This document shows, in pieces, positions 12,177 to 61,811 of a stretch of DNA of 64,000 nt. The position numbers were made by a program, and so were the translations under genes. Location of the stretch: contig CAWHTP010000007.1 of assembly GCA_963832285.1 (NCBI GenBank), forward strand, positions 43,998 to 107,997, given 5' to 3'. This stretch comes from an uncultured Cytophagales bacterium (GTDB lineage: Bacteria; Bacteroidota; Bacteroidia; Cytophagales; Cyclobacteriaceae). The notes beneath the pieces are model-generated. The model ran no database searches and was not told the DNA's origin. It saw only the letters and a program-made list of their open reading frames with translations. Each line of letters opens with the position of its first letter. Position 1 is the stretch's first letter.

Positions 12177-12222
12177 GCAGCCACATCAAATTTATTTAAA
12201 ACCAAGACAAAAAAATTTTAAT

Positions 12223-13233: not shown

Positions 13234-13239
13234 TTCTCG

Positions 13240-44799: not shown

Positions 44800-45069
44800 T
44801 TAATAATGAAATTTACATTGAATTATTATACACAACTGATCTTCACCTTCCTCTCCTGAAACACGATAAACAAGGCGATGTTCCTTTGTAATTCTTCTAG
44901 ACCAGTAGCCCTTAAGCTCATGTTTAAGAGGTTCTGGTTTACCAAGCCCACCAAAGGGCGATTCGTTGATAGAAGCAAGAAGCAGATCAATTTTTTTTAA
45001 TATGCTAACATCCTTTTGCTGCCAAAATTCGTACTGTTTGCGAGCCGTTTTACTGAATGCAAATTTCAA
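44800..45069 (-). CDS. yoeB: Txe/YoeB-family toxin (mRNA interferase)
   Basis: 89 aa with LKGYWSRRITKEHRLVYRV, the YoeB signature. It sits immediately downstream of the antitoxin, with abutting coordinates. Confidence 0.85.
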   Translation of the reverse strand: MKFAFSKTARKQYEFWQQKDVSILKKIDLLLASINESPFGGLGKPEPLKHELKGYWSRRITKEHRLVYRVSGEEGEDQLCIIIQCKFHY

Positions 45070-45339
45070 TTATTCTGTGAAAACCCCTTTTTTCAGATCA
45101 AAAGGATGGGTTTCCATCAATTCAGCCTCCTGTATTGATTTTCTTATTTCTTTTCTATTTGCTTCTGTAGAAAGTAGATGAGCTGTTTCTACTAAACTAT
45201 TGTACGCTGCATAAGACAAAATCACCAATGCATCATTTTCCTTTTTTCGGGAAACAACAATCGGATGCTTGGATTTAGAGGCGCTATCAAAATACTTCTT
45301 AATATTTTTTCTGAAGAGCGTTGGGGTTATGTGTTTCAT
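45070..45339 (-). CDS. yefM: Phd/YefM-family antitoxin
   Basis: 89 aa with a YefM-like N-terminus (..FRKNIKKYFDSA..PIVVSRK..ALVILSYAAYNSLVETAHLL). Its stop abuts the yoeB start. Confidence 0.8.
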   Translation of the reverse strand: MKHITPTLFRKNIKKYFDSASKSKHPIVVSRKKENDALVILSYAAYNSLVETAHLLSTEANRKEIRKSIQEAELMETHPFDLKKGVFTE

Positions 45340-45376: not shown

Positions 45377-45413
45377 TATCACCTGTCAGATTTTTGAAAC
45401 CTGACGGGTGATA
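45377..45413 (-). terminator. rho-independent terminator after susD (end of the long minus-strand transcription unit)
   Basis: 13-bp stem TATCACCTGTCAG / CTGACGGGTGATA (one G-U pair) with an 11-nt loop. On the minus strand it is followed by GCTTTTAAAAATTT. Confidence 0.6.
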
Positions 45414-45433: not shown

Positions 45434-46885
45434 TCAATCTTTTTCCCACCAGCCTTTGCTGTTGATGTTATCGCCTCCAATTCTTGCAGCTGCTTCCTCA
45501 TAATTAGCTGCATTAGTGGCCTGCTCCGATTCCGGGTAGAAGTAACGTACCGGATATCTACCATCGTTCACAGCATCGGGTCCTGCTACTATTGTCGGTA
45601 TGCCGGTTCTTCTGATGTTGAACCAAGCCTCGTGGCCTATGTTAATTAAACTCAACCATTTCTGAGTCATTATTTTGGTGATATTATCCGATCCATCTAG
45701 GGCAACGGCCGTTCTTGTGAAGTAATCTGCCGGCACGGTAACGCCATAATACTCGAAGCTCGCAGCAATACCATTTTCATAATAAGTCTGTGCATTTCCG
45801 CTGATGTAACCTCGTTCTGCGGCTTCGGCTAAGGCAAATTGTACCTCGGCATATTGCATAAACTGTGCATCCACACCATCGGGAACATCTCTGAAGATTG
45901 AACCGAAAAGAGAAAGCTTGGGGATAGAGAGCGTTGTATCCTGTGCAATGGTTTCTCTACTCTGTCCATTTCTTACTCCTCTGTACTCTACTGAATCTGT
46001 GCCGATGCTTCGTTGGGTAGGCTTGTAATACACACCAATTCTTGGATCATCCAAAAGTGTTAGCACTGAATCTACGGTGAAAGTCATTACATGCTCATCG
46101 TTAGCGCCTGACGAGGCCAGAAAGAACGGAAATTGGTTAGGAGCGGTGGACAGAAAAGGCAAAACGGCATTATCGGAATTAGCTTGCATAAGCTTTCCGC
46201 TATTAGCCAGTTGCTCCAATTCTGAAAAATCTGTAAGGCGCTTGCTTATCCTCAAAAGGTATCTTAATCGCAATGAATTGGCAAATTTTACCCATTTTGA
46301 TAGGTCGTTTCCAAACATTACGTCACCCCGAATAGGAGCATCGGTACTTTCCAATGTGGTAGCCGCAGCCTTCAGAACAGCAAGAATACCTGTTTCAGGA
46401 TCGGTGTAAATACTTTCCTGCGTATCGTATTTGGGCGTTACAATTCCCTCCTCTAAAGAAATAGCTTCGCTGTATGGCACATCATTCCACATATCGGTAA
46501 GTTGAGAGGAGATGAAAGCCCTCAGTATATCGCCAACGGCTATGTACGCTTCATTAGACGCTTCAGCTTCTTTCATCGATTTGATATCCTGAAGGTTGCT
46601 AAAAAGGTTGTTCCAGTAGGTACCGTTAGAACCGATGATATATCTGTCGAAATCGCCAAAGTCGATGGCTGCAGCAAAATGTGCGAAGTAGTTTGATTGA
46701 TCAAAACCTTGCGTATAGGTATTCCGCTGTATCAGTTCGGTAATTACGTTGGTTAGCAGAAACTCCGGCTCTACTGTTTCCGAAGAATTTTTGTTTTTAT
46801 TGATCTCTTCGAAGTCATCTGTGCAGGAGAAGGTAAATACCATCATTGCCGTTAATAACAGAAAGTATTTTTTAGTATTTTTCAT
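45434..46885 (-). CDS. SusD/RagB-family nutrient-binding outer-membrane lipoprotein
   Basis: Lipoprotein signal ..MMVFTFSC. It lies directly downstream of a SusC-like gene, and the C-terminus ..KGWWEKD is typical. Confidence 0.85.
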   Translation of the reverse strand: MKNTKKYFLLLTAMMVFTFSCTDDFEEINKNKNSSETVEPEFLLTNVITELIQRNTYTQGFDQSNYFAHFAAAIDFGDFDRYIIGSNGTYWNNLFSNLQDIKSMKEAEASNEAYIAVGDILRAFISSQLTDMWNDVPYSEAISLEEGIVTPKYDTQESIYTDPETGILAVLKAAATTLESTDAPIRGDVMFGNDLSKWVKFANSLRLRYLLRISKRLTDFSELEQLANSGKLMQANSDNAVLPFLSTAPNQFPFFLASSGANDEHVMTFTVDSVLTLLDDPRIGVYYKPTQRSIGTDSVEYRGVRNGQSRETIAQDTTLSIPKLSLFGSIFRDVPDGVDAQFMQYAEVQFALAEAAERGYISGNAQTYYENGIAASFEYYGVTVPADYFTRTAVALDGSDNITKIMTQKWLSLINIGHEAWFNIRRTGIPTIVAGPDAVNDGRYPVRYFYPESEQATNAANYEEAAARIGGDNINSKGWWEKD

Positions 46886-46896
46886 TTCTTGCGTTT

Positions 46897-49800
46897 TTAA
46901 AATTGGGTTTTTATGCTGAAGCCGAAACTTCGTGTTGAGGGATAAGACATATCATCCACCCCATACACTATATTTGTACCCTGCGAGGCATTTAATTCAG
47001 GGTCCACATGTGGGTTTTCAGTAAATAGCAACAAATTACTGCCCACAAAACCTATTTTAACATTCTGAAAACCAATGCGTTCACAAATAGCTTTATTTAG
47101 GTTGTAGTAAAGGCTAAGCTGTCGTAACTTCAGATAAGAGGCATCATACAAAGCACTTGCCTCGTTTCCTCTGGCGAAGAAGCGGTTATAATAAGTGCTA
47201 GCAGGGATGTTGGTGGTATTTTCCACATATTGTGGTGTTTCAGCCGTCCCTACATTCACTAACCCGTCACCCACTATGCCCTCTTGCCGGCCAACTAGGG
47301 TTTCCTTCAGTACACCTGAAGTATGGCCAAGCGCCTTGGTTCGTGAAACAAATACTCCACCTTGCCGCCAATCGAACAGGACGCTTGCGCTCACATTTTT
47401 GTAAGAAAAACTATTAGTTAAACCAAGGGAGAAGTCAGGGTTGTAATTGCCCAGCAACCTCAATGTGGGATCAAGAACTGGCAACCCGTTGGCATCGTAC
47501 AAGGTTCTGCCATCAACTTCCACAAAGCCTGAACCATACATATCACCCACACGGCCACCTTCTTTGGCTATGTAAAAAACGGAGTTACTGCCACCACTAC
47601 CGCCAAAAACATCCGCGGTTCCGGTAACAAATTGATCTACGCCCTCGGGCAATTCTACGACTTTGCTTCTAAAAGACGAAAAATTAACCGATGCACTCCA
47701 CGTAAAATCGGTAGTTTTTAATATCGCACCACCAATTAATACTTCAATACCTCGCGTTTGCACCTGCCCCCCATTTTCCAATTTAGCGCTAAAGCCTGTA
47801 GTGGCAGAAATTGGTCTGCTGATAATTTGATCTACACTGGTATTCTGATAAACAGTAAAATCAGCGTTCAACCGATTATTGAAGAAGGAAATCTCAGTTC
47901 CGGCTTCATAAGAATTTAGCCTTTCAGGTTTTAAATTAGCATTTTTAAGCGAACTCTGATTGGTTACCTTTAAACTGCTGCCATAGTTTTGGTTAAAAAG
48001 AAATGTGTTCCTAAGTTGGTATGGATCGGTGTCGTTACCTGCGCTTGCCGCACTTAACCTAACCTTAAAAAAGGAGATGTTATCCGGTAAATCCAAGCTG
48101 TTGGATAGTACATAGCTTAAACCTGCAGAATAATAGGCAAAGGAGTTTTGCTCCAATGGTAATGTGCTGCTCCAATCGTTTCGTAGAGAAATATCCAGAT
48201 AAATGGCACTTCTATAGTCTAGTGTTCCTGTTCCGTATACACTATTAATTCTTTTTTCGAAGGTCTGGTTATCGCCAATCACATCATTAGAATTTGCAAA
48301 ACTGTAGATGTTGGGCAAAATCAATCCTGAGGCTGCTGTGTACTTGTAGGAGGTACGTTGATCAAATCTGTTGGCTCCGGCAGAAACAGAATATTTAAAA
48401 TCACTGTTAAAGCTGTTTTTATAGGTAAGCAGGACATCCGTATTTTGTTCGTAGAAGGTAACCACATCTTCCCGGTAGCCACCCAAAGGGTTTCTATTGG
48501 TACTTAGTGCTCTTCGAAATGCTCTGTTGTCATTATAGGTATCGAGCCCCGTTCTTAGGCTTATCTGCAGATTTTGATTTAAGCTATAATTGGCTGATAT
48601 ATTGCCTAAAACACGGTTTTTATTGAAACTATTCGTATTCTCGAAAAGTGTAAGGTACGGATTGGTGATCCATACATAATTGTAATCAAAATGCTGTCTG
48701 CCCACTTGGCCTTCCTGCCAGTAATCCTTGAGCCGGGCAATATCTACTTGACGTGGTGTCCAATTAAAGCCGTAATTCACATTTTCATAACCGTAGCCTA
48801 AGTTTGGTCTGTTTCGGCTTCTTACGTTAATGTAGTTGATGTACGAGTTTACACTCAGTTTACTTGTTAGTTGCTGGTCAAGGCTGATAGCTAGTCCATC
48901 ACGATTGAGGTCTGTATTTGGGGTTACACCCTCGTTGCGAAAGTTGCTATACGCTAATCTTATACTTCCATTGTCTCCGGTAGAATTTACAGCTACATTA
49001 TGCTGAGAGGTAATTCCTGTTTCAAAAAAGTTTCGCACATTATCAGGCCGGGAAATCCATGGGGTAGCGGTAATATTGGTTAAAGTACCATCGGCTCTTG
49101 TTCGCGCCAGCACATCGCCCGCGCGCACCGGATTACCAAAAATATCTGTAGAGGGGCTGTCGAATTGTTGAATCAATGTTCCCTGATCTAGCCTAGGGCC
49201 AAAGCTGGCAATGCCGGCACCACCATCGTTCAGGCCTCCACCGGCACCATCCACAAATGAAAACTGCTCATTTCCTCCTGCTCCATATTCGTTTTGGTAG
49301 TCCGGGCTAGTGAGTAAAGTTTCAAAAGTAAGGAGGCTGCTGGTGGTTACCCCTAGGCCTGGTTGTCTTTTTCCTCGTTTGGTGGTAATAAGTACAACTC
49401 CGTTAGCAGCTCTTGAACCATATAAAGCTGCAGAACCCGCTCCTTTTAAAATGGAGATTGAGGCTATATTTTCAGGGTCAATGTCTGCTCCGCCATTACC
49501 GTAATCTACTTCTTGAAATGAACCGTTGTTCACTAAATCACTTGTAATTTGTTCATTACTAATAGGCACGCCATCCACCACAAAAAGGGGCTGGTTGGTA
49601 CCACCCAATGAATTTTCCCCTCTTATAATTATTCGAGAGGATGAACCAACACCGGAAGAGCCATTGGTTATTTGTACCCCTGCTACCTGACCGGCCAGGC
49701 TGTTCACTAAGTTGGTCATGGGCACCTCCGTTAGTTGCTTGCTGTCCAGTTTGGTAATTGAGGCTGCCAGTGATTGCTTCTCCCGCTCAATCCCCAGGGC

Positions 49801-50121
49801 GGTTACCACTACTTCATTGAGTTGGTCGAGCTTTGGTTGTAGCTGAATGTCAATAACGGACCGGGTGCCTACTGCCACCTCTTTTGTTTCCATTCCAATA
49901 AAGGAGATAATTAGCGTTACCTCATTTGAATTAATGTTGAGTTTGAACTCGCCTTCATTGTTGGTTGTAGTTCCTCTGGAGGCGGTGCCTTTTAGCTGTA
50001 TGTTTACGCCAGGCAAGGCCTCACTAGTTTTTGCATCAGTGATTTTACCACTTATGGTACGTTCTTGTGCATAGGCACTTAGTAGCAATAGCTGTAGTAT
50101 TGCTAATAAAAATATTCTCAT
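46897..50121 (-). CDS. SusC/RagA-family TonB-dependent outer-membrane transporter
   Basis: Signal MRIFLLAILQLLLLSAYAQ, a CarboxypepD_reg domain (ISGKITDAKTSEALPGVNIQLKGT), the plug motif ISILKGAGSAALYGSRAANGVVLITTK and a terminal ..SIKTQF. The start was trimmed to 50121. Confidence 0.9.
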   Translation of the reverse strand: MRIFLLAILQLLLLSAYAQERTISGKITDAKTSEALPGVNIQLKGTASRGTTTNNEGEFKLNINSNEVTLIISFIGMETKEVAVGTRSVIDIQLQPKLDQLNEVVVTALGIEREKQSLAASITKLDSKQLTEVPMTNLVNSLAGQVAGVQITNGSSGVGSSSRIIIRGENSLGGTNQPLFVVDGVPISNEQITSDLVNNGSFQEVDYGNGGADIDPENIASISILKGAGSAALYGSRAANGVVLITTKRGKRQPGLGVTTSSLLTFETLLTSPDYQNEYGAGGNEQFSFVDGAGGGLNDGGAGIASFGPRLDQGTLIQQFDSPSTDIFGNPVRAGDVLARTRADGTLTNITATPWISRPDNVRNFFETGITSQHNVAVNSTGDNGSIRLAYSNFRNEGVTPNTDLNRDGLAISLDQQLTSKLSVNSYINYINVRSRNRPNLGYGYENVNYGFNWTPRQVDIARLKDYWQEGQVGRQHFDYNYVWITNPYLTLFENTNSFNKNRVLGNISANYSLNQNLQISLRTGLDTYNDNRAFRRALSTNRNPLGGYREDVVTFYEQNTDVLLTYKNSFNSDFKYSVSAGANRFDQRTSYKYTAASGLILPNIYSFANSNDVIGDNQTFEKRINSVYGTGTLDYRSAIYLDISLRNDWSSTLPLEQNSFAYYSAGLSYVLSNSLDLPDNISFFKVRLSAASAGNDTDPYQLRNTFLFNQNYGSSLKVTNQSSLKNANLKPERLNSYEAGTEISFFNNRLNADFTVYQNTSVDQIISRPISATTGFSAKLENGGQVQTRGIEVLIGGAILKTTDFTWSASVNFSSFRSKVVELPEGVDQFVTGTADVFGGSGGSNSVFYIAKEGGRVGDMYGSGFVEVDGRTLYDANGLPVLDPTLRLLGNYNPDFSLGLTNSFSYKNVSASVLFDWRQGGVFVSRTKALGHTSGVLKETLVGRQEGIVGDGLVNVGTAETPQYVENTTNIPASTYYNRFFARGNEASALYDASYLKLRQLSLYYNLNKAICERIGFQNVKIGFVGSNLLLFTENPHVDPELNASQGTNIVYGVDDMSYPSTRSFGFSIKTQF

Positions 50122-50188
50122 TTTAAGTAATTTAATGGATTGAAGCGTCAGGTTTTTCCATTGTGGCGGACGCAATTATTTAATCATT

Positions 50189-50866
50189 TTATGAAGAACT
50201 ATTCGGGCAAGGTGGGCCTCTTAAATAATGCAGAGGAGCGAAAATATCGCTCACCAAAATCCTTAGAAAAGGTTTAGTAATTTTAGTATCGTTGGCAAAC
50301 AGCCTTTGATAGAATTGCGCTAAAGCGCTAAATGGATTTTTGGCAGCAAAGCGCTGTAACGAATTGATCGAATCCAGATCATTAAGTATCGGTAGTTTAT
50401 AAATTTCACTATGCTGTTTGTCAAAGTATTGCCGGAGTGATTTACACAGGTAGTTTTTCTTCCAAGGCAGCTGCTTAAAAGTGACTAGATCAAACTGCGA
50501 CCGGTTCAATGCTAATAGGTAAATTCCGCCATCTGCAGCTGGACCGCAAACCACTTGTTTTCCTGATAATTTTTCAACTGCCTGCTCTATTAACTGACTG
50601 GATAGATCAGGGCAATCATTGCCTATTGAAACTATGTTATCATACCCCAAGTCAAAAGTAGCTTGTAAAGCATTTCCATATTTCTCACCAAAAGAATTGC
50701 CGGCCTGCTTCTGCTCGTTAATCCAGATGAGATCAAGCTTTATAGTTTTTGCAAGCAATCTGGTTTCGTCAGTCAGTTGCTCAAATAGTAGCTCATTGGC
50801 TCTTTGTCTATTTCTAATAATTTTCTTCTTGCTTGCCTCCGTTTGGGGCGACAAGGAAAATACCAT
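50189..50866 (-). CDS. DUF2064-family (TIGR04282-like, GT-A/nucleotidyl-transferase fold) protein, paralog 2
   Basis: LMVFSLSP.., QKQAGNSFGEKYGNALQATF, SIGNDCPDL, GPAADGGIYLLAL and QLPW motifs. The start was trimmed to M65 (50866) so that it no longer overlaps the radical SAM gene. Confidence 0.7.
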   Translation of the reverse strand: MVFSLSPQTEASKKKIIRNRQRANELLFEQLTDETRLLAKTIKLDLIWINEQKQAGNSFGEKYGNALQATFDLGYDNIVSIGNDCPDLSSQLIEQAVEKLSGKQVVCGPAADGGIYLLALNRSQFDLVTFKQLPWKKNYLCKSLRQYFDKQHSEIYKLPILNDLDSINSLQRFAAKNPFSALAQFYQRLFANDTKITKPFLRILVSDIFAPLHYLRGPPCPNSSS

Positions 50867-50888
50867 GAGGGCAGTATTTGAACCTTTC

Positions 50889-51845
50889 TTAATTGGCACT
50901 TTCAGATTGTATGATTGGCCTCTGTTTTTGAATATCGTAGTGCTTGGTGAAAAACTCATCGCACCAAAGGCATACATTATTGAGTTCTTTGGCTCTTTTA
51001 AGTCCTTCGGCTGCGGAGATTCCAAGGCTTTCACCCATTCCGTAAGCATCACCTTCATTGAGCTTGCGCATCACTTCATGTTTTGACATGCGTTGTAGCA
51101 CATCCTCCACTTTATCCACTCTGGCATCTCCCATGGCTTTTACCGTGCATGGGCAGCAAGGATTTATGGCCCAAAGCTGTATGGAAATTTCTTGTGTTAT
51201 ATCCGCCTCTTCATTCCCTAAAAAACCGATGGCTCCGGAAGGAATTGAGCAAAAGTTATGCGTGCCGTCTTTTTTCCAGATGTCGTGCTCCATGGCTCTG
51301 CCGCGTGCCCAGTTTCCACCGAGCCACATATCTTCTGTTGCACCAAAAAAGCCAAAAGTGAGTTCTTTTCTGGAGTTATTTTGTAATTCAGATTGTGTTA
51401 AAGCCGGCTGTCCTTCAATATATTTTATCCCGTGGGAGGTAAATAATTCCGATAAAGCATCTTTGCGTTCACCTTGTTTTTTATGGTATCGGTCAATGCT
51501 GGCAATAGAAAAACGGTCAACTCCCTTTGCTTTTAAGGTTTCCAGAATGTCTGCCGTTAATAAGTCGCCATTAAATTGAAGTGCTACATATAGTTTATTG
51601 CCATATTTTTCTTTCAGCCTGTCCAGGATCTTATAAAGCAGCTGCTTTTCGGCTAATGGTTCGCCACCGCTAAGCGTTATACGCTCCATGCCTGCCGGAA
51701 GGTTCTCAATTATGGCCATGCAATCGGCTTCGGACATGCGCTTTCCCTTAGGGCCGCTGTTGTTGTAGCAGTGGATGCACTGGTCGTTGCAGAGTTGGGT
51801 AAATACCCAGTAGATACGATCTATTTTGGAAAAATCATTCTTCAT
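50889..51845 (-). CDS. radical SAM protein with a C-terminal Cys-rich region (subfamily unknown)
   Basis: CX3CX2C cluster CNDQCIHC followed by ..GP.., the SAM-binding motif LSGGEPL, and C-terminal cysteines in NPCCPC and CLWC. Confidence 0.8.
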   Translation of the reverse strand: MKNDFSKIDRIYWVFTQLCNDQCIHCYNNSGPKGKRMSEADCMAIIENLPAGMERITLSGGEPLAEKQLLYKILDRLKEKYGNKLYVALQFNGDLLTADILETLKAKGVDRFSIASIDRYHKKQGERKDALSELFTSHGIKYIEGQPALTQSELQNNSRKELTFGFFGATEDMWLGGNWARGRAMEHDIWKKDGTHNFCSIPSGAIGFLGNEEADITQEISIQLWAINPCCPCTVKAMGDARVDKVEDVLQRMSKHEVMRKLNEGDAYGMGESLGISAAEGLKRAKELNNVCLWCDEFFTKHYDIQKQRPIIQSESAN

Positions 51846-51894
51846 GGTTGGTACTTTTAGCGTTACATGTACGGTTTTGCATTAGTAGATAGAT

Positions 51895-52884
51895 TTAACT
51901 AAGTAATATTTTTTGAGATGTTTCCATGAGTACCAGGCGTTCGGCAAGAGTGAGCGTGAGTGGCAATTGCGCTAGGCCCATAAGCCTTCTCAGTATCTCA
52001 ATGGCTTGGAATTTCCCCATCAAGTCCTCATCCATTGGTACACTTTCTTGATAGGTTTTGATAGCCTTGATCATGAATGAATCCGGCTGCTGCGCCATCT
52101 TAAGATGTGCAGCCATTATGCCTAACTCAAACTCCGGGATGCCAAAGAAGCAAAACTCCGGATCAATTACTTTTATGCCATCAGTGGTTTTAAGCCAGCT
52201 GCCGGGAAAAAAATCGCCATGCAGCAACTTTTCTCCGTCAGACAAATACAGCTCGCCCATCTCCTTCACTTTTTTCTTCAAAGCTTCATCTTTGCGTAAA
52301 TCAGCTGCGGCTTGTTGCAGTCCCGGCATTACATCATCCAGGTTCATGCCGTTATTATTCAGATATGGAAAATGAAAGATATGCTCATGGTTTAATTGCC
52401 GCATTTTCCTGTTATAAATGGGCTCATCGGTGGAGGCTATGGAAAATGCGCTATGCAAATCACATAAATAATCCACTAGTTCCATTAGATCATCTTCTTC
52501 CATATTATCTCCCCGCTGGTAAATATGCGTAAAGTCCGTACCTTCTCCCAAGTCTTCCATCAGCATAATATTGTTGGCGGAATCGAGGCCAATAATTTGT
52601 GGCATCCTCGCTTGTATGCGCTCTTTTTTGCCGATCATGTTGTAGAACTCAGCTTCAGTATTTACCCGCTCTGCCGGGGCAGCTACTTGAGGATATTTTT
52701 CTACATATTCTCGGCTTTGTTTAATAATGAACGTGCTGCCGTCAGATACTTTGCACCTTAGCGTGAAATTCATATTGCCTTCTCCCGGTACTTCGGTAGC
52801 TTGTACCTTTTGATCCTCCTTGAGCCAATTTTTATCCTGTAGGTAGGCGTTAATGGCTGCTAAATCTTTGCTAATTTTTATCAT
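51895..52884 (-). CDS. MtnK-like (5-methylthioribose kinase / APH-fold) sugar kinase
   Basis: The motifs GEGNMNFTLRC and FIIKQSREYV..YPQVAAPAERVNTEAEF resemble MtnK. The catalytic HGDFFPGSW resembles the MtnK HGDLHTGS motif more than the APH HGDxxxxN motif. Confidence 0.65.
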   Translation of the reverse strand: MIKISKDLAAINAYLQDKNWLKEDQKVQATEVPGEGNMNFTLRCKVSDGSTFIIKQSREYVEKYPQVAAPAERVNTEAEFYNMIGKKERIQARMPQIIGLDSANNIMLMEDLGEGTDFTHIYQRGDNMEEDDLMELVDYLCDLHSAFSIASTDEPIYNRKMRQLNHEHIFHFPYLNNNGMNLDDVMPGLQQAAADLRKDEALKKKVKEMGELYLSDGEKLLHGDFFPGSWLKTTDGIKVIDPEFCFFGIPEFELGIMAAHLKMAQQPDSFMIKAIKTYQESVPMDEDLMGKFQAIEILRRLMGLAQLPLTLTLAERLVLMETSQKILLS

Positions 52885-52887
52885 AAT

Positions 52888-54564
52888 TTAGTTTTTTGTA
52901 AGGCTTTTGATGAGTTTTTCGTGGTAATCCGGCACCACATCGTAGCAGTACTTAATTTGGTAGCTTCCTTGCTTATCACACAGCAAATAGTTTTTGAATT
53001 GTGTGCTGTTATTGTCCTTTACAGTATCGTTTTGGTGTATTTCCATTCTCGCTGTTAACCGCTCACTAACAATATCCTCAGGAGCAATTAGGTAATGGCT
53101 TGCAAGCACATCAAACGGATTGAAGCCGTTAGCACCTTGTGCCAGCCATTGCTCTAACCATGGTTTGGAATGATCGGACAGCCATTGGTTGCCAGTGGTG
53201 CTGTCATTGAGCCGTTGCAGATCATCTTTGGTAATCCATACTTTGCTGCTTATTTCAAAAGGGCAGAGTGTTACCGGTACCTCAGCTTCAAATAAAATTT
53301 GAAAGGCTGCATTATCCAAGTCAAAATTTAGGTCAGCGGCATGATTGCCCTGCTTACCGATGGCAAAGTAATCGGTCGGCTTTCTCCTGCCCGCTACCAA
53401 GACCACTTCTTCAATTTGCTTGGCTAATTCAGGATGTTTCAAAAGCAGTATGCCCACATTTGTGGCCGGGCCAATAGCTAATATGCGTAGCTTGGTTTCT
53501 TTCAGCTTGGCAGCCAATGCCTCTGTAGCCTCATTGTGGTTAACGGCCGCTAAATCAATCGCTTGCCCAGCTCCTTTAAAAACGGGAATATCATAGGGGG
53601 CAAAGTCAGCGCACATCTTTTTGCCAATTTCAAAGGCATTATCAATAGAAGTATTTCCAAATACTGCGCTTATTCCGTGTATTTTAATGCTTTCAGCTTT
53701 AAAGAGCTGCAAAACGGCAAAGCCATCGTCCACATCGCAGTAGCCCGGTTTATGCGTTCTTTTTTTGCCTACGGCCAAGTCTGTATCTATCCAAATATTT
53801 TGTGTTGGTGCTTTCATATCAATTCGTTTTGCTTGGTAGCAGGTTTTTGCAAGCTTTGCCAGAAAGGTCAATTCATTTTGTACGCCAGTAAGTGGGTCAT
53901 TAATAAATGCTTCTTTCGATTCATATATTTTAAGTTTTCCTTTGTTCATGTAGCCAATTTCATCGCCCATTAAAATGGCTTCCTTTAAATCGTGGGTTAC
54001 AAAAACTGATGTTATTTGATACTGGAGGGCTATGTCTTTAAATAACTGTTGCATTCTGTGCCTTGTGGTAGTATCCAAGCTGCCAAATGGTTCATCGAGC
54101 AGCAGCAGGCTGGGATTAGTTATAATTGCCCTTCCAAATGATACACGCTGGCGTTGCCCACCTGACAACTGATCGGGCATTTTTTCTCCTTGCTTATCCA
54201 GTTCAAGGGCAGCAATCATATCATTCACTTTAGCTACCACCTCCAACTTAGGTACTTTTTTTAGACGCAAGCCAAAGGCAATGTTTTCAAAGATATTTAG
54301 GTGTGGAAACAGCAGATCTTCCTGATAAAGGTACACGATATTCCGTTTTTCTGGGGCCTTGTTTTGTATATCTTCTCCTTTAAGCCTTATATGTCCAATA
54401 TCTGGCAATATTAATCCGCTAATAATTTTGAGCATAGTAGTTTTACCGCATCCGGATTTACCCAATATACTTAGCGTTCTATTCTCGGTGAGCGAAAAGT
54501 TCAGCGCCTTCACCACCGCTTCGTCATAAAATGACTTGGTTATATTTTCAACTTCTAAAAACAT
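52888..54564 (-). CDS. ABC transporter ATP-binding protein fused to an inosine/uridine-preferring nucleoside hydrolase domain
   Basis: Residues 1-215 are the ATPase: Walker A GKSGCGKTT, signature LSGGQRQRV and Walker B LLLLDEP. From M250 (53817) on, IWIDTDLAVG...CDVDDGFAVL, ILAIGPATN and a nucleoside-hydrolase-like remainder follow. It is one uninterrupted frame. Confidence 0.8.
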   Translation of the reverse strand: MFLEVENITKSFYDEAVVKALNFSLTENRTLSILGKSGCGKTTMLKIISGLILPDIGHIRLKGEDIQNKAPEKRNIVYLYQEDLLFPHLNIFENIAFGLRLKKVPKLEVVAKVNDMIAALELDKQGEKMPDQLSGGQRQRVSFGRAIITNPSLLLLDEPFGSLDTTTRHRMQQLFKDIALQYQITSVFVTHDLKEAILMGDEIGYMNKGKLKIYESKEAFINDPLTGVQNELTFLAKLAKTCYQAKRIDMKAPTQNIWIDTDLAVGKKRTHKPGYCDVDDGFAVLQLFKAESIKIHGISAVFGNTSIDNAFEIGKKMCADFAPYDIPVFKGAGQAIDLAAVNHNEATEALAAKLKETKLRILAIGPATNVGILLLKHPELAKQIEEVVLVAGRRKPTDYFAIGKQGNHAADLNFDLDNAAFQILFEAEVPVTLCPFEISSKVWITKDDLQRLNDSTTGNQWLSDHSKPWLEQWLAQGANGFNPFDVLASHYLIAPEDIVSERLTARMEIHQNDTVKDNNSTQFKNYLLCDKQGSYQIKYCYDVVPDYHEKLIKSLTKN

Positions 54565-54637
54565 TCAATCAGTAAATTTACGCCTCAATTCATTACTTTG
54601 AACAAGGCAGTTTGCCGTACAGTGCAACAAGTGGTAC

Positions 54638-55411
54638 TTACGGATTCCAAGTAAATACATATTTTTTGTTGATGTACAGAAGCAGCACGGGAGGAAAAAT
54701 GAGCAGACAACAGCTGAGTGCCCCATAGAAAAAGTTGGCTTCTTTAATAAATAAAAACACCTTAATAGTCATAGTTTGCACCTTACCCACTCCAATAATT
54801 GAGGTAAGTCCGTATTCAAACCATGAAATAAGAAAAGTTTGGAAAAAACAAATGAGAATAAGCCCTTTAGCCAATGGAAAAAGTACTTTGATGTATCGTT
54901 GGAGGGTGTTGCCGCCTAAAGTGGTGGTAAGGGATTCATAATTTTTTACACGCTCGCCCCAAAAACTGCTGAAGAATATAACCGCATACGGAAAAGCGAT
55001 AATAAATTGCGCTAATATAACTCCGCTGGTTTTACCAAAAAGGCCGACTTTTATAAAAAAATAGCTTAGGCAGGCAGCAAACACCACTGGTGATAAGATG
55101 TATGGAAAATAAGTGAGTAGTGATAAAGTGTTTTTCTGCGGATGATAGGCCACAACCTTGCTAATAAGAAAGCCTGCTGCGGTAGCGGAAAGACCCACCG
55201 AAAGCGCAATAAAAAGAGAAAGAAAAAAACTGGAAAGCACTCCTGCTTCGCTGGTAAAAATTATTTTCCAGTTTTGTAAACCAAATTGGCGGGGTAAAAG
55301 GGCGGGGTACTGCCAGTCGGATGCCATGGAAAGTAACAGCAGGTAGGCAAACGGAAAGCATACCAAAACCACGATGGCCGATAATATGAAGGGTTTTATA
55401 CTAAGCCTCAT
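54638..55411 (-). CDS. ABC transporter permease (YnjC-like half)
   Basis: A six-TM-type binding-protein-dependent permease. Its start overlaps the upstream permease stop by 11 nt. Confidence 0.8.
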   Translation of the reverse strand: MRLSIKPFILSAIVVLVCFPFAYLLLLSMASDWQYPALLPRQFGLQNWKIIFTSEAGVLSSFFLSLFIALSVGLSATAAGFLISKVVAYHPQKNTLSLLTYFPYILSPVVFAACLSYFFIKVGLFGKTSGVILAQFIIAFPYAVIFFSSFWGERVKNYESLTTTLGGNTLQRYIKVLFPLAKGLILICFFQTFLISWFEYGLTSIIGVGKVQTMTIKVFLFIKEANFFYGALSCCLLIFPPVLLLYINKKYVFTWNP

Positions 55412-56255
55412 AGGTGTTGCTTTTACGTTTATAAAAAAGAAACACTGCGGCTATGGAAACCACCAGTGTATAAATAGAAGCCACCACATATCCCTCGGAA
55501 ATTTTTGTAAGATCAAATTGCTTTAACTCCCGAACCACCAATACAGACAGCATTTGCGGGGATTCGCGACCTAAAATAAGCGGCACCTCATACGAGCCTA
55601 GCAGGAATATAAAATAAAGCGCAATGAGTTTCCAACTCTTACGCAGCAAAATCGGAATACTTACCTTTTGCAAGGCCTGTCTGCTGCTGGCACCTAATGT
55701 TGTGGCAAGTACAGCCATTTCATCCACCCGCTCATTTTTATAAATATTGAGAAATAGCAATAGAAAAAATGGCAGCACCAGTGAAATAAAAGTGACTATA
55801 ATGCCAATGGCCAGCGGATCATTCACCAAGCCGGGAAATTCTTGAATACCGGAGATAAAACCCAGCTGATAAGCCAGCCTAGAGAAAAAGCCTGATTTGG
55901 TAAAAAGCTGCAAGGTGAAGAAGGCCGATACTATTCCCGGAACTGCCAGTGGCAGGTAGATGGCGAAGGACAAAAAGCCTTCGTTTAAGTTTCTTTTATA
56001 GCTTATTGCCAGCCAAAGCGCGGTGCCAACGGATAGAGCTACCGCTACTAAGGCTACCAAAGCACTAAAAGCGAATGACTTGATAAATGCTCCATTGTAT
56101 AAAATTTCCTTCCAGAATTGTAGGGTAAAGCCATCATTTACAATGCCTACCAGCCCGAAGCTATAGAGCAGTGCATAGCCTAAAGCCAGAGCAAAAGGCA
56201 GTACACCTATTACAACGAAAAAACCAAGGCCTATATAATGTTGCTTATTTTTCAA
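55401..56255 (-). CDS. ABC transporter permease (YnjC-like half)
   Basis: Polytopic permease. Its start overlaps the binding-protein gene stop by 11 nt. Confidence 0.8.
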   Translation of the reverse strand: MKNKQHYIGLGFFVVIGVLPFALALGYALLYSFGLVGIVNDGFTLQFWKEILYNGAFIKSFAFSALVALVAVALSVGTALWLAISYKRNLNEGFLSFAIYLPLAVPGIVSAFFTLQLFTKSGFFSRLAYQLGFISGIQEFPGLVNDPLAIGIIVTFISLVLPFFLLLFLNIYKNERVDEMAVLATTLGASSRQALQKVSIPILLRKSWKLIALYFIFLLGSYEVPLILGRESPQMLSVLVVRELKQFDLTKISEGYVVASIYTLVVSIAAVFLFYKRKSNTYEA

Positions 56256-57465
56256 TTACAAAAGTTCTAAAATCTTCAAAAAGCCTGATCATATATTCAG
56301 GAGCCGGCTCTTGTATGGCGTAAGGAGCCAAATCATTTAATGTAGGGCCATATTTTCTATCTACTATGGCCTTAAATTTAGTTTGCCATTCTTCAGGTAA
56401 TTTATCTATTGCCAACACAGTATTAGCGTTCATTCCTTCAGGATTGGCCTTTTTGTATTGTGCTTCAGGAGAAATAAGAAAGTTTATTACCTGCATAGCG
56501 CCTGCCTTTTGCTTGGCATTATCCAGTATACCCAAGTAATTGCTATTCATTACCGTTCCGTTTTTCCAAGCATAACCGCGGGTAGTTTTAGGATATAATC
56601 CCTGCTCCACTTTCTCTTCTATACCTCCCTCGCTAAAGCCGAAAGTGATATTCAACTCACCACTGGCAAATAATTGATCCATTTTGGAATGTTCTTTCGG
56701 AAATGTAGCGCCCTGCTTCCAGAAATATTTCTTATTGCTGTTGAGGTATTTCCACAATTGGGCTGAAAGCTCCTTATATTTTTCCTCATTAAATGCACCA
56801 TTCAGTCCACCAGGGCTACCACTTAATTCAGCCAAAAAACTTTTAAGTAGCGACATGCCTGAAAAATCATTGGAGATGGTGAAAGTACCGGGATAATTTT
56901 GCACATACTTTTCCAGCTCTGCCAGATTTTTGGGAGGTTGACTAACTCTGGCACTGTCATACACTAGGGCAAATTGGCTAATTCCCCAAGGGCACTCCAT
57001 GTTATTTATCGGTTGCTGAAAGTCTATGGAGATAGCAGGGTCAATAAAATCTATGAATGTTGCATGGGGCAGCTTTTGTACAAATGGTCCCCATAAGCCA
57101 CTAATTTTTTTAAGCTGGAAAAAGGTTTCACCATTGATCCACACCACATCAATTTGCCCTTCCATCACTCCGGCTTCCTTTTCGCCCATAACAAGCTGCA
57201 CTATTTCCGGGCCCTGGCCACTGCTAATCTTTAGGTTAATGTTGAACTGCTTTTTCAGCTCGGGTACTACATAGTTGTTCATGTAGTTATTGATGACTGA
57301 GCTGCCTTGCCACATCATAAAATTAACTGTGGTACCGTTTGCAGCCTTGGCTATTTCAGGCCAGCTGGCATCTTTCCAGTTTTTAGTCTCTTTTTTTGAG
57401 GTACAAGATAAGAGCAAAAAGCTTGTAGTAAGCGCAACTATGCACTTTACAATAAATGAATACAT
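56245..57465 (-). CDS. ABC transporter substrate-binding lipoprotein, YnjB-like
   Basis: Lipoprotein signal FLLLSC. The motifs VNFMMWQGS..INNYMNNYV, DVVWINGETFFQLKK..LWGPF and CPWGISQFALVYDSARV..PPK resemble E. coli YnjB as I recall it. Confidence 0.7.
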   Translation of the reverse strand: MYSFIVKCIVALTTSFLLLSCTSKKETKNWKDASWPEIAKAANGTTVNFMMWQGSSVINNYMNNYVVPELKKQFNINLKISSGQGPEIVQLVMGEKEAGVMEGQIDVVWINGETFFQLKKISGLWGPFVQKLPHATFIDFIDPAISIDFQQPINNMECPWGISQFALVYDSARVSQPPKNLAELEKYVQNYPGTFTISNDFSGMSLLKSFLAELSGSPGGLNGAFNEEKYKELSAQLWKYLNSNKKYFWKQGATFPKEHSKMDQLFASGELNITFGFSEGGIEEKVEQGLYPKTTRGYAWKNGTVMNSNYLGILDNAKQKAGAMQVINFLISPEAQYKKANPEGMNANTVLAIDKLPEEWQTKFKAIVDRKYGPTLNDLAPYAIQEPAPEYMIRLFEDFRTFVIEK

Positions 57466-57504
57466 AAATTGATTTTGGTTTATTAGATTTACTAAGTGAA
57501 GAAC

Positions 57505-58203
57505 TTAGTAAATAGGGGGAGCCCTTAAACCAACGAAGCGGACTGCTGCAATAGATATGAAGTGCCTTACTCTGGCACGAGTTTTAAGTATAAAATTATG
57601 AAGTAACTGATTGAGGAGCCTCGAAAAGCTATTGATACCATCCGCAAGATGTTGTGAGCGAAGAAACAGCACGATATCGCATCGCGTATTCACATCTCTT
57701 TTTTTGTCGAGTACAAGCGGCTGATTATTTTTGTTGAAGTGCCCTAATAATTCATTATACAGTTTGTTTGATTGCCACGGTAGCTGCTCAAAGCTTTGCT
57801 TATTAAAATGTGCTTGGTGAACACCAATAAGGTAGGCACCTCCTCTTAAATTAGGGCCAATTACTGACTTATTATCCTGTAGTTTTGTAAAAACTTCATT
57901 CCAGCTTATGGATTGCCAATCGAAAAAATCGTTGCCTAAAGCAACTACAGATTTGTAGCCTTTACGGTAAAGCGCCTCAAAAGCGTTAGCTAATTTTTCG
58001 CCAAATGAGTTGCCTTGCTGCCGGTGTTCATCAAAAATATAAATAGGCTTATTAAGTTTCTTGAGAAACGAGGCAGAGGAATTAATAAGCAACTGCGCTA
58101 AGTCATAATCTTTTTCGGCATTGCCGGTCCAATTCTTGTGTTTGGATTCCAGCTTTGCCGATCGGCTAAAGAATAATATGGCTGTTTGCTCTTTTAAACT
58201 CAC
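57505..58203 (-). CDS. DUF2064-family (TIGR04282-like) protein, paralog 1
   Basis: AILFFSRS.., RQQGNSFGEKLANAFEALY, ALGNDF, GPNLRGGAYLIGV and QLPWQ motifs. Apparent GTG start. Confidence 0.7.
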   Translation of the reverse strand: MSLKEQTAILFFSRSAKLESKHKNWTGNAEKDYDLAQLLINSSASFLKKLNKPIYIFDEHRQQGNSFGEKLANAFEALYRKGYKSVVALGNDFFDWQSISWNEVFTKLQDNKSVIGPNLRGGAYLIGVHQAHFNKQSFEQLPWQSNKLYNELLGHFNKNNQPLVLDKKRDVNTRCDIVLFLRSQHLADGINSFSRLLNQLLHNFILKTRARVRHFISIAAVRFVGLRAPPIY

Positions 58204-58583: not shown

Positions 58584-59651
58584 ATGAAGTCAACAGAAAA
58601 TATTACTACAAATAATTTCTTCCCAACATTGAAGAAGCGAGTTGATGATTATTTCAAGTCTAACAACATTAACAAGTGGGGAAATAGCAAACTTTACACT
58701 AAGGCTACCATTTTATTGATAGCGTTTGCCTCGTTGTATACAGCCATAGTTTTTATTGCCATGCCAGCTTGGCTTTCTTTAGTACTTTGCGCCATTTTTG
58801 GCTTAAACTTAGCAGCAATTGGCTTCAATGTTATGCACGATGGCGCCCACGGAAGCTTCTCTAATAATAAGCATGTGAATTATATGATGGGCCTTACGCT
58901 TAACCTCATGGGTGGTGTAGTATTTATATGGAAAAATAAGCATAATAAAAATCACCACTCCTTTACTAATATTGAAGGTATGGACGATGACATTAATATT
59001 GGCCCTTTTATTAGGGTGAGTACGCACCAGAAGAAAAGATGGTACCATAAATACCAGCACATTTATGCGTATCCTTTGTATGCCACTTCTTATTCGTTCT
59101 GGGTTTTCTTTCAGGATTTTAAGAAATACTTTACCGGCAAAATAGCCGATACTGAATTGGCTAATATGAGTTTTAAGGAACACACAATTTTCTGGCTTAC
59201 CAAGGTAGGTTACATTGTTACTTTCTTTGCTCTACCCATTTTTATGAAAGGTTTGGTTGCCACCATTGTAGGTTATTTAATTGTTACAGCCATAACAGGC
59301 TATACCATAGGTGTGGTATTCCAATTAGCACATGTGGTAGAGGAAACTGATTTCCATGATGTGCCGGTTAAGGGTGAGCGTATTATACCTACTGAATGGG
59401 CTATCCATCAAATAAGAACCACAGCCAATTTTGGAACAAAGAATAAGGTGTTGAACTGGTACACTGGCGGATTGAATTTTCAGGTAGAGCACCATTTGTT
59501 TCCTAAAATAAGTCATGTGCATTACCCGGCCATTAATAAGTTAGTAAAAGAAACTTGCGAGCAGTTTAACGTAGCCTATCATGAATTCCCTTCTATGATA
59601 GCCGCCATGAAATCTCATACCAAGCATTTAAGGATGATAGGAATAGCATAA
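58584..59651 (+). CDS. membrane fatty-acid desaturase (front-end-like histidine boxes, no cytochrome b5 domain)
   Basis: The three histidine boxes are HDGAH, HNKNHH and QVEHHLFP. Several TM segments. Confidence 0.8.
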   Translation: MKSTENITTNNFFPTLKKRVDDYFKSNNINKWGNSKLYTKATILLIAFASLYTAIVFIAMPAWLSLVLCAIFGLNLAAIGFNVMHDGAHGSFSNNKHVNYMMGLTLNLMGGVVFIWKNKHNKNHHSFTNIEGMDDDINIGPFIRVSTHQKKRWYHKYQHIYAYPLYATSYSFWVFFQDFKKYFTGKIADTELANMSFKEHTIFWLTKVGYIVTFFALPIFMKGLVATIVGYLIVTAITGYTIGVVFQLAHVVEETDFHDVPVKGERIIPTEWAIHQIRTTANFGTKNKVLNWYTGGLNFQVEHHLFPKISHVHYPAINKLVKETCEQFNVAYHEFPSMIAAMKSHTKHLRMIGIA

Positions 59652-61059: not shown

Positions 61060-61700
61060 TTACAAGTTAAAGATTAGACTTTGTAGTAAATTAGCTTCTA
61101 AGCTTGTTGCTTGTTCCTTATTGCATTGCTTTAATCCAAATAGTTTATAACAAATGAGCCAACTCCTCTTTTCACTTGTTTTTTTCATCTCATGATGTAT
61201 AAGCCAAAACGTGAATAAATTCATGCAAAGGAACGAGTAAAAATGCAATGGCTAATACATAAAAAGTACGTATAATACCTTCTCCAAATGGTAGTTCATA
61301 ATTTTTATGTACAATAAATAGCGGATAGTTTGGATATGTCAAATTCAAGTTTCTATATTTGAGCATCATATCGGAAGTATCCGATTTATACAGAAGAGGT
61401 AAGAGATCAGGCTCTATGATCCTCTGGCAACCGCCAAAAAATGCGCAACGCATAAGGAAAGGTGCCAATTCCTGCCCAATGAAGGGACATATAAAACGGC
61501 AATGCTATGAAAAATCAAATAAAACACATTCGCACAACACAGCAATCAGAAAACTCTTTTCTTGTTGTCTCAATTCCTTGTAATCCTACAGTTCGCATGG
61601 CCGGCACTATTGCTTGTTGCAACTGCTGTTGTTGATTTTCATTAAATCATTCTCCCACAAGGCTCACTTCAATGTAGAGAAGCGTTGAATAGCCAGTCAT
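61060..61700 (-). pseudogene. possible degraded membrane metallopeptidase-like gene (HExxH), broken across at least three frames
   Basis: The minus-strand pieces are FFIALPFYMSLHWAGIGTF.., then ..IIRTFYVLAIAFLLVPLHEFIHVLAYTS*, then ..WLICYKLFGLKQ.. They lie in different frames and are separated by stops. The family guess (DUF3267-like) is weak. Confidence 0.3.
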
Positions 61701-61811
61701 AATTTTTTGATTGTCTTCAGGAGAACATCACAACATAATCTACTCATACTTACGAAAACCCCTTCTTTAAAAAAAGAAGATTCCAATTACAGAAAAGCAT
61801 ATCTATATAAA

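Follow-up and report, generated by a model that had tools for sequence, protein, structure and literature searches.

What would a bacterium do with an operon that joins an enzyme of the radical S-adenosylmethionine (SAM) type, two DUF2064 proteins, a nucleoside hydrolase, and a sugar kinase to a complete set of uptake genes? The question is raised by a ten-gene locus in a stretch of 64,000 nucleotides (nt) from an uncultured Cytophagales bacterium (GenBank assembly GCA_963832285.1, contig CAWHTP010000007.1, positions 43,998 to 107,997 of the forward strand), hereafter called the window, to which coordinates refer unless another locus is named. A first-pass annotation of the locus had proposed an uncharacterized pathway for a 5'-modified ribonucleoside. 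Judging from the arsenosugar genes directly beside it in related genomes, the cluster probably handles an arsenic-like compound or a 5'-modified ribose compound. Its invariant core is a receptor, an ATP-binding cassette (ABC) importer of the YnjBCD type, and the radical SAM enzyme, usually with a DUF2064 protein; the nucleosidase and the kinase are accessory. We tentatively favor a route in which the imported compound would be adenosylated by radical chemistry, freed of adenine, phosphorylated at C1, and handed to DUF2064.

An importer-linked radical SAM enzyme

The proteins of the window were compared with the six-frame open reading frames (ORFs) of 84 loci, 10 kb being taken on either side of the radical SAM gene. 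The radical SAM gene is present in all 84 loci, and in these related genomes the importer adjoins it in 74 to 75 of them, as judged from the substrate-binding protein (SBP), the permeases (permease 1 in 74 loci and permease 2 in 75), and the ATPase. DUF2064 was found in 53 loci, the kinase and SusC in 31 each, and the nucleosidase and SusD in 29 each, and clustering of the ORFs across the 84 loci revealed no further universal neighbor.

Two architectures were distinguished. Type A comprises 29 loci, including the window, from several families, with radical SAM proteins at least 62% identical to that of the window and with the gene order (DUF2064)-SBP-permease-permease-ATPase-nucleoside hydrolase-kinase-radical SAM-(DUF2064)-SusC-SusD, or with SusC-SusD first. 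Type B comprises 47 loci (radical SAM identity, 56% to 65%) with the order DUF2064-TonB receptor-SBP-permease-permease-ATPase-radical SAM; here the radical SAM gene overlaps the ATPase gene, and a TonB receptor of ~1010 amino acids (aa), without SusD, replaces SusC in all 47 loci. The nucleosidase and the kinase are accessory because they are absent from the 47 type B loci. The first-pass annotation had counted both among the steps of its pathway, a point corrected by type B; its view of the genes as one unit is borne out by the order recurring in type A loci and by the core found in 74 to 75 of the 84 loci. The best-conserved component across both architectures is the radical SAM protein, with a median identity to the window of 59% in type B loci, followed by the ATPase (52%), the SBP (49%), the permeases (about 40%), and DUF2064 (31%).

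Detectable relatives of the radical SAM protein number 1205 in a large protein collection; the best 120 of these 1205 are 57% to 88% identical, and those of them that bear a name have generic ones only ("radical SAM protein," "organic radical activating enzyme," and "hypothetical protein"). When one genome per species was scanned, relatives turned up in 399 of 185,579 species. The 80 best-matching loci belong mostly to Flavobacteriales, Cytophagales, Saprospiraceae, and Chitinophagales, others among them coming from Ignavibacterium, Balneola, Salinibacteraceae, Acidobacteriota, and Armatimonadota. The closest relative is a sister locus (L092) whose radical SAM protein is 88% identical to that of the window and which has kept both DUF2064 paralogs. 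Even a very distant homologue (L088; 162 bits) is still flanked by a TonB receptor gene on one side and a YnjBCD-like transporter on the other, and the contexts of three other distant homologues (L087, L089, and L090) were uninformative.

In the window, ten genes follow one another in the same direction on the minus strand from 58203 to 45434, separated by short gaps or overlaps in the six-frame ORF list, and all the ORFs of the run that had been annotated are present. From DUF2064a to DUF2064b the spacings are +39, -11, -11, +73, +3, +49, and -11 nt, the last counted to the GTG start of DUF2064b at 50899 (+22 nt to the ATG at 50866), and by their coordinates start and stop codons of neighboring genes overlap. 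SusC and SusD do follow, as described earlier: the gap from DUF2064b to SusC is +13 nt with the TTG start of SusC, the 67 nt given there implying a later start, and that from SusC to SusD is +11 nt. The only strong hairpin with a T-run, previously noted after susD, was recovered at 45377-45413 on the minus strand as a terminator-like structure closing the unit (-20.3 kcal/mol; z = -5.9; none of 200 shuffled sequences folds as well), with the T-rich tail AGCUUUUAAAAAUUU after it; within the operon, terminator-like sites occur at chance level (16 found versus 15.6 expected from shuffled sequence). Upstream of the operon, neither the window nor seven related loci showed a riboswitch or leader. 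The ten genes are predicted to form one operon, and the arrangement is far beyond chance, the same gene order recurring in 29 type A loci of other genera. Pfam and NCBIfam scans backed each of the domain calls made along the locus, and each of the motifs cited for it (HGDFFPGSW, CNDQCIHC, NPCCPC, and CLWC) was recovered.

The SBP (56245-57465; 406 aa) is a putative lipoprotein with an LLLSC lipobox and is assigned to the YnjB type by model NF008633/PRK11622 (357 bits; cutoff, 203), which gives 395 bits in a type B locus (L004). It is 31% identical to Escherichia coli YnjB over 355 aa, and its identity to homologues is 61% to 70% in type A loci and 45% to 63% in type B loci. Its AlphaFold2 (AF2) model (mean confidence score pLDDT, 91) is nearest to cluster-D binders, namely, FbpA, the PhnS-like protein 4r6y, and PotD, at template modeling (TM) scores of 0.55 to 0.64. 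A ligand call from the fold was given up, the neighbors being generic binders of Fe3+, polyamines, phosphonates, sugar phosphates, and dinucleotides from which no ligand can be deduced. Permease 1 (55401-56255; 284 aa) gives weak matches to CysT and ModB permease models, and permease 2 (54638-55411; 257 aa) matches PF00528 (31 bits) and, weakly, ModB, PhnU, and PhnV. At the outer membrane, the predicted chain of transport begins with a SusC/RagA-type TonB-dependent transporter (46897-50175; 1092 aa from the TTG), which scores 607 bits with TIGR04056 (cutoff, 368) and 56 bits with the SusC signature TIGR04057, and a SusD-like lipoprotein (45434-46885; 483 aa; PF12771, SusD-like_2, 306 bits). 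In 27 type A loci the SusC proteins are 59% to 72% identical, and in the same 27 the SusD proteins are 56% to 72% identical.

Some loci depart from the two architectures in detail. The distant L088 locus (3925-13603) encodes an extracytoplasmic function sigma factor, an anti-sigma factor, a TonB receptor, the radical SAM protein, an SBP, a fused YnjC-like permease, an ATPase, a TauE/SafE-family exporter, and a DUF2177 protein; this variant has no DUF2064. In a metagenome-assembled genome of Aequorivita (L085), the radical SAM gene is duplicated in tandem after the kinase gene (9001-9957 and 10001-10957; 318 aa each). Eleven type B loci contain a pair of paralogous ~215-aa proteins, always together, with no Pfam or NCBIfam match and with the motifs WEDRPVNNYWWV and TTLDPIVEHG; the pair lies directly after the radical SAM gene or between the ATPase and radical SAM genes (L049, 10946-11587 and 11512-12231; L041, 6863-7498 and 7495-8148; also L039, L043, L046, L047, L050, L074, L075, L076, and L080). 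In the type B locus of Pontibacter sp. G13 (L086, 437-2336), an EcKL/APH-type kinase and a protein of the inositol monophosphatase family are encoded directly upstream of DUF2064; this kinase was considered as a counterpart of the window kinase and dropped for lack of homology.

Enzymes of the cluster and adjacent arsenosugar genes

The radical SAM gene (50889-51845) encodes 318 aa. Pfam matches (PF04055 and PF13353, Fer4_12) are confined to the N-terminal 115 residues, and those in NCBIfam are to generic models (AhbD, NirJ, MoaA, and viperin) over residues 1 to 120, with a best score of 45 bits and no equivalog among them. The cysteines of the CX3CX2C cluster (C19, C23, and C26) are invariant, as are C42, C199, C230, C231, C292, and C295 and the basic and aromatic motifs SIDRYHK, GGNWARGR, and GDAR, and NPCC is also kept. 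The AF2 model (pLDDT, 86) has EpeE/YydG, BtrN, viperin, MoaA, and SpeY as its nearest folds (TM, 0.39 to 0.57); the best Twitch folds reach TM scores of only 0.45 to 0.57, and no SPASM model matches the C terminus. The earlier proposal drew on ArsS, the radical SAM enzyme of arsenosugar biosynthesis. However, the ArsS model TIGR04167 (cutoff, 300 bits) is not among the best 25 of 56 NCBIfam matches, the top one of which scores 45 bits, there is no match to a C-terminal DUF3641 (PF12345), and profile-profile alignment with ArsS (hhalign) covers core residues 16 to 154 only, at a probability of 80%. An ArsS-type enzyme was ruled out because DUF3641 is missing and the similarity is limited to this core. 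Membership in any other known family was also rejected: searches of NCBIfam, Pfam, PDB sequences, and folds reached only the generic core or distant Twitch enzymes. On the combined evidence of sequence and model, the protein is assigned to a new, previously undescribed, Twitch-like family distinct from ArsS.

The ATPase and the nucleosidase are encoded in the window by one 558-aa ORF (52888-54564), in which an ABC_tran domain (114 bits; residues 1 to ~245, with no C-terminal regulatory domain) precedes an inosine-uridine (IU) family nucleoside hydrolase domain (PF01156, 114.7 bits; cutoff, 34.2; residues ~255 to 558). The fusion reported earlier is thus real for the window ORF but is not a conserved trait: in L092 the two are separate genes 42 nt apart, and they are separate in all other loci too. 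Either a stop codon was recently lost or the junction (…LAKTCYQAKRIDMKAPTQ…) contains an error in the sequence. The Asp motif of the hydrolase is kept as DTD and DVDDG separated by 13 aa, an insert that departs from the canonical contiguous cluster; NPFDVLASHYL is invariant among 30 homologues, and an aromatic-Asp pair replaces His-Asp, which we take to recall purine-specific hydrolases. No RihA, RihB, or RihC equivalog was matched at cutoff. Since it has no signal peptide, the hydrolase is predicted to be cytoplasmic.

The adjacent gene (51895-52884; 329 aa) encodes a predicted kinase acting at C1 of ribose or a 5-substituted ribose. It matches the MtnK model TIGR01767 at 114.5 bits (E = 5.9e-33), below the equivalog cutoff of 275, and the APH domain at 37 bits, and it is similar to methylthioribose kinases in the PDB (2pyw, 7e-13; 2olc, 1e-9). 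The protein is ~70 residues shorter than MtnK, with whose structures GEGNMN (GxGNxN), IIKQS, HGD, IDPEF, and EILRRLMGLA align, the last not being significant on its own. Across 32 homologues the catalytic motifs are conserved together with E296, R299, R300, and G303; for the twin Arg we assume the sugar-binding role that it has in MtnK. These similarities and motifs vindicate the original call of an MtnK-like kinase, and the sequence indicates a specific relationship to MtnK, as neither a generic APH protein nor an MtnK equivalog.

That nucleosidase and kinase act as a functional couple, as was suggested, is seen in Balneola (L041), where the order is TonB receptor-SBP-permease-permease-ATPase-two ~215-aa proteins of unknown type-PNP_UDP_1 (MtnN-type)-MtnK-like kinase-radical SAM. 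The PNP_UDP_1 protein is a predicted nonorthologous replacement of the IU hydrolase. Because an MtnN-type enzyme has been exchanged for it beside the same kinase, the activity of the nucleosidase, and not its protein family, appears to be conserved.

DUF2064a (57505-58203; 232 aa, GTG start) and DUF2064b (50189-50899; 236 aa from the GTG, or 225 aa from the ATG of the public gene call) are 28% identical to one another. They match PF09837 at 57 and 72 bits, respectively (cutoff, 25.8), and DUF2064b is similar to PDB entry 3cgx (E = 1.9e-16). The two proteins had been equated with TIGR04282, the family tied to arsenosugar genes. Both fall below its cutoff of 134 bits, at 72.6 and 91.8 bits, the matches spanning model positions 60 to 189 only, and cluster DUF2064 homologues share a C-terminal extension ending in LRAPP or LRGPP that is absent from true TIGR04282 proteins. 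By these sequence features, they are placed in a separate, cluster-specific subfamily of the DUF2064 superfamily.

The link to arsenosugar chemistry that had been proposed is found in the genomes themselves. In Leeuwenhoekiella (L020), the radical SAM gene is directly followed, on the same strand and with gaps of <20 nt, by genes for a rhodanese (NF045521, 169 bits; cutoff, 145), an AhpD-like protein (TIGR04169, 190; cutoff, 120), ArsS (TIGR04167, 433; cutoff, 300; DUF3641, 185 bits), and the arsenosugar ArsM (NF038099, 569; cutoff, 400). Downstream of its radical SAM gene, an armatimonadotal locus (L080) encodes ArsS (418 bits) and an AhpD-like protein; Flavisolibacter (L078) combines a rhodanese, encoded directly after the radical SAM gene (176 bits), with TIGR04282 (218 bits) and TIGR04283 (217 bits); in Ignavibacterium (L052) the cluster DUF2064 is immediately preceded by a TIGR04283::TIGR04282 fusion; and in Owenweeksia (L001) a rhodanese opens the operon and TIGR04282 (199 bits) and a GT2 gene diverge from it. 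In two more loci only the rhodanese abuts the cluster, directly after the radical SAM gene (L021, 174 bits with NF045521 against its cutoff of 145; L033, by phmmer only). The three rhodaneses scanned with NF045521 ("rhoda_near_glyco"), from L078, L020, and L021, score 169 to 176 bits; from its name alone, we take this model to mark rhodaneses near TIGR04282 and TIGR04283 transferases. Curated arsenosugar genes thus abut the cluster in no fewer than seven loci, drawn from four phyla, which for families of such rarity is by an informal estimate far above chance position, and three more loci carry ArsM-type genes. Among these, ArsM-like methyltransferases are encoded between the ATPase and radical SAM genes in L043 and L074, at 177 to 186 bits (below the cutoff of 263) and without one of the three catalytic cysteines, and in Fibrisoma the genes for a true ArsM and an Acr3-like protein lie 7 kb from the cluster.

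Candidate fates of the imported compound

In the route that we favor, a scarce compound, X, would be pumped into the cytoplasm through a TonB gate (SusC/SusD in the window) and the YnjB-type ABC importer. The radical SAM enzyme would join X to the 5'-deoxyadenosyl part of SAM, as ArsS does with dimethylarsenite, and its auxiliary cluster or CC pair may bind X or take up an extra electron. The IU-type nucleosidase would remove adenine from the adduct, the MtnK-family kinase would phosphorylate C1 of the resulting 5-substituted 5-deoxyribose, and the DUF2064 protein, a TIGR04282 paralog with a CofC-like GT-A fold, would activate or transfer the sugar, the product feeding downstream enzymes shared with arsenosugar synthesis. 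Where the nucleosidase and kinase are missing, housekeeping enzymes of the MtnN or MtnP type would take their place. We infer adenosylation rather than hydrogen abstraction by the radical SAM enzyme, as well as the order of the steps and the activity of DUF2064; X itself may, at a guess, be an organoarsenical or a compound of a soft metalloid or a chalcogen.

After ArsS, the way to arsenosugars leads through removal of the base, activation of the sugar, and formation of a glycoside, and the nucleosidase and MtnK-family kinase are predicted to have the activities that the first two of these steps require. MtnK-type kinases are used on riboses lacking the 5-hydroxyl, which derive from SAM-derived nucleosides; on the simplest reading, the nucleoside arises within the cell from the operon's own radical SAM enzyme, either as the adenosylated product or as 5'-deoxyadenosine. 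For the first step the precedent is ArsS, which adenosylates dimethylarsenite, DMAs(III), to 5'-deoxy-5'-dimethylarsinoyl-adenosine (PMC13598754). The proposed route gives every gene a role, and the order nucleoside hydrolase-kinase-radical SAM-DUF2064 fits one pathway. Under it, true TIGR04282 and TIGR04283 genes, ArsS, and ArsM would cluster with the operon because downstream steps are shared, and type B would manage without the accessory pair because housekeeping MtnN or MtnP serves. It is possible, if doubtful, that the ~400 carrier species, in Bacteroidota, Ignavibacteriota, Balneolales, Acidobacteriota, and Armatimonadota, share a widespread uptake-coupled radical pathway in which a trace metalloid, chalcogen compound, or organoarsenical is imported, joined to the ribose of SAM, and made into an activated 5-substituted ribose.

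Several observations weigh against adenosylation of an imported arsenical or its like. The nearest folds of the radical SAM enzyme are Twitch enzymes that abstract hydrogen (an epimerase, dehydrogenases, and viperin), and beyond the core it is unrelated to ArsS. ArsS and the new enzyme are not interchangeable, since both are present in L020 and L080, and arsenosugar genes are linked to the cluster in only 7 to 10 of the 84 loci. A cell would gain nothing obvious by actively importing an arsenical, and conservation of the SusC/SusD pair at about 60% to 65% suggests a sizeable organic ligand and not a simple ion. The place of DUF2064 is also uncertain in this scheme: the cluster proteins lack the G-K-T-R-L-like N-terminal motif of true TIGR04282, they diverge fast (31% to 35% identity where the radical SAM protein has 59% to 68%), and about ten Flavobacteriaceae loci yielded no DUF2064 within 10 kb.

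The same genes could instead serve the salvage or catabolism of an imported 5'-modified nucleoside or riboside, a course to which we give a rather low probability. The nucleosidase would split the import at the transporter, the kinase would recover the sugar, and the radical SAM enzyme would act as a lyase on the base or sugar phosphate; the import could, with the same reserve, be an arsenosugar, 5'-deoxy-5'-dimethylarsinoyl-adenosine, methylthioadenosine, or a queuosine-like nucleoside, type B taking up the deglycosylated form. Such a course would parallel the indirect queuine route of Clostridioides difficile, with its transporter, IU-family hydrolase QueK, and radical SAM lyase QueL, and queuine systems with and without the hydrolase step mirror types A and B. 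The window nucleosidase is fused to the transporter ATPase, but the fusion is not conserved; SusC and SusD mostly accompany the nucleoside hydrolase and kinase in Bacteroidota, but Balneola pairs nucleosidase and kinase with a plain TonB receptor, so that receptor type does not track the ribose genes. The SBP diverges more across the two types (49%) than does the radical SAM protein (59%), the Twitch fold suits dehydrogenase or lyase chemistry, and adjacent arsenosugar genes could detoxify released arsenic. Nevertheless, a kinase of the MtnK type would be odd for plain ribose, DUF2064 is left without a role, no tgt or que gene is a conserved neighbor in the 84 loci, and no preQ1 riboswitch was found in the window operon or seven related loci. 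Queuosine salvage as such was discarded, there being no conserved queuosine genes beside the 84 loci and no preQ1 riboswitch in those scanned for one, and is retained only within this broader scheme.

An unlikely third explanation takes the nearest folds, hydrogen-abstracting Twitch enzymes with an auxiliary cluster, at face value: the radical SAM enzyme would act as a lyase, dehydrogenase, or epimerase on an imported nonnucleoside nutrient, spending one SAM per turnover, and the nucleosidase and kinase would dispose of the by-product 5'-deoxyadenosine. The Cys pattern C199...C230/C231...C292xxC295 resembles that of BtrN, and an extra conserved Cys could act as hydrogen donor, as in EpeE. MtnK paralogs that phosphorylate 5-deoxyribose (DrdK) are known, which speaks for this explanation, as does the fact that type B manages without nucleosidase and kinase and that an MtnN-type enzyme can be substituted. 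The output, improbable to the same degree, would be 5-deoxyribose 1-phosphate, an entry to a route like the dihydroxyacetone phosphate shunt; however, no locus has an isomerase or aldolase for the later disposal steps, and disposal genes dedicated to this end would be unusual inside radical SAM operons. Here too DUF2064 has no role, and the recurrent contiguity with ArsS, TIGR04282, and TIGR04283 genes goes unexplained. Finally, it is very improbable that SusC/SusD, an ABC importer, and unrelated enzymes just happen to be neighbors: DUF2064, nucleosidase, and kinase are each missing in some members of the family, but order and tight spacing recur in type A loci of several families, the core is found in 74 to 75 of the 84 loci across phyla, start and stop codons overlap, and there is a single strong terminator.

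The surroundings of the operon in the window are ordinary. Directly past the terminator, a Phd/YefM antitoxin and YoeB toxin pair is encoded on the same strand (44800-45339, minus), and the upstream flank is a divergent fatty-acid desaturase gene unrelated to the operon. The remainder of the window is ordinary Bacteroidota chromosome, including malic enzyme, cell-wall enzymes, and a 2380-aa homologue of SprA, of type IX secretion and gliding (24253-31395, plus strand), and it contains no arsenic genes, neither ArsS nor ArsM. Its sole Rfam match, outside the operon, is a SAM riboswitch (RF00162, 70 bits, E = 2.6e-14; 61383-61497, plus strand), which precedes a pyridoxal phosphate enzyme of Cys/Met metabolism (61707-62984, plus strand; PF01053, 446 bits) in an ordinary arrangement. 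Desaturase genes lie beside the cluster in the window (58584-59651, plus strand), Marivirga, and Balneola, within the operon in the last, and a fatty-acid or OlsE-like hydroxylase gene does so in Owenweeksia and Flavisolibacter; the coordinates of these di-iron lipid enzymes are 2177-3253 in L019, 2346-3416 in L022, 11099-12061 in L041, 1336-2211 in L001, and 17594-18343 in L078. By the similarities of its desaturase and SBP, the window falls near Marivirga. A lipid link through the membrane di-iron neighbors was considered possible but set aside, as the neighbors are not conserved overall.

Relation to known systems

No description of the system was found in the searchable literature, outside which most subscription journals lie, and DUF2064 is not mentioned there; by their titles and abstracts, the papers that name TIGR04282, TIGR04167, DUF3641, COG4134, or ynjB deal with other subjects. 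Like polysaccharide-utilization-type and rus loci of Bacteroidota, the locus combines adjacent SusC and SusD with cytoplasmic enzymes that include a nucleoside hydrolase and a sugar kinase. It differs from them in having no glycoside hydrolase but an ABC importer with SBP, a radical SAM enzyme, and DUF2064, and in that a plain TonB receptor can replace SusC/SusD with the core unchanged. The rus loci carry a PfkB ribokinase, which the present cluster lacks.

In methylthioadenosine salvage by MtnN and MtnK and in the DrdK route, a nucleosidase is likewise followed by an MtnK-family kinase. In the present cluster, however, the nucleosidase belongs to the IU hydrolase family, the genes sit inside a transporter-radical SAM operon, and no isomerase, dehydratase, or aldolase follows. 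Queuine salvage in C. difficile (QueT, QueK, and QueL) similarly unites in one cluster a transporter, a nucleoside hydrolase of the IU family, and a radical SAM enzyme; its transporter is of the energy-coupling factor type, in contrast to the TonB-dependent and ABC route here, and neither a kinase nor DUF2064 takes part. Radical addition of a 5'-deoxyadenosyl group followed by a nucleosidase, the logic that we propose, is also that of HpnH/HpnG in adenosylhopane synthesis and MqnE/MqnB in the futalosine pathway. Those systems have no sequence relationship to the radical SAM protein beyond its core and are without a transporter or C1 kinase.

A counterpart of the importer is encoded in E. coli K-12 (NC_000913.3, 1834000-1846000; L091), where ydjX (DedA)-ydjY (4Fe-4S)-ydjZ (DedA)-ynjA-ynjB-ynjC-ynjD-ynjE run on the same strand. 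The AhpD-like YnjA and the rhodanese YnjE belong to the same accessory families as the proteins encoded after the radical SAM gene in L020, but the E. coli run has no radical SAM enzyme, DUF2064, nucleosidase, kinase, or TonB receptor, and its permease is one fused protein. As E. coli ynjBCD is flanked by the same two families, the association of transporter, AhpD-like protein, and rhodanese is presumably old, and the loci described here would for the first time place the uncharacterized YnjBCD transporters, that of E. coli among them, in a functional setting.

In algae, arsenic occurs mainly as arsenosugars, from which the arsenobetaine of marine food webs presumably derives. To our knowledge, only ArsM and ArsS are established in the synthesis of arsenosugars, and we know of no gene that serves to remove the adenine, activate the ribose, or form the glycoside, nor of one for their uptake or breakdown. 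The arsenosugar gene set (ArsM, ArsS/TIGR04167, TIGR04169, TIGR04282, TIGR04283, and NF045521) resembles the present cluster in pairing a radical SAM enzyme with a DUF2064 or GT-A-like protein, and the adenine removal and ribose activation expected of it match the nucleosidase and MtnK-like kinase here; it differs in lacking a dedicated TonB-dependent and ABC import route. The operon thus offers candidates for arsenosugar steps in its IU- or MtnN-type nucleosidase, MtnK-like kinase, and DUF2064. If the proposed route is correct, a widespread pathway would fill in the steps that arsenosugar synthesis still lacks after ArsS, and heterotrophic bacteria would have a second branch of 5-deoxy-5-X-riboside metabolism, devoted either to nonarsenic compounds or to imported arsenicals. 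The hypothesis can be tested directly in hosts already in culture, among them Marivirga, Owenweeksia, Leeuwenhoekiella, Zobellia, and Algoriphagus.

From its genes, we provisionally class the locus, which defines a radical SAM family hard-wired to an importer, as one of radical-SAM-based 5-deoxy-5-X-riboside metabolism with its own import route. By analogy, it resembles a hybrid in which an uptake locus of the Bacteroidota kind is combined with the opening steps of methylthioadenosine salvage and with the arsenosugar pathway.

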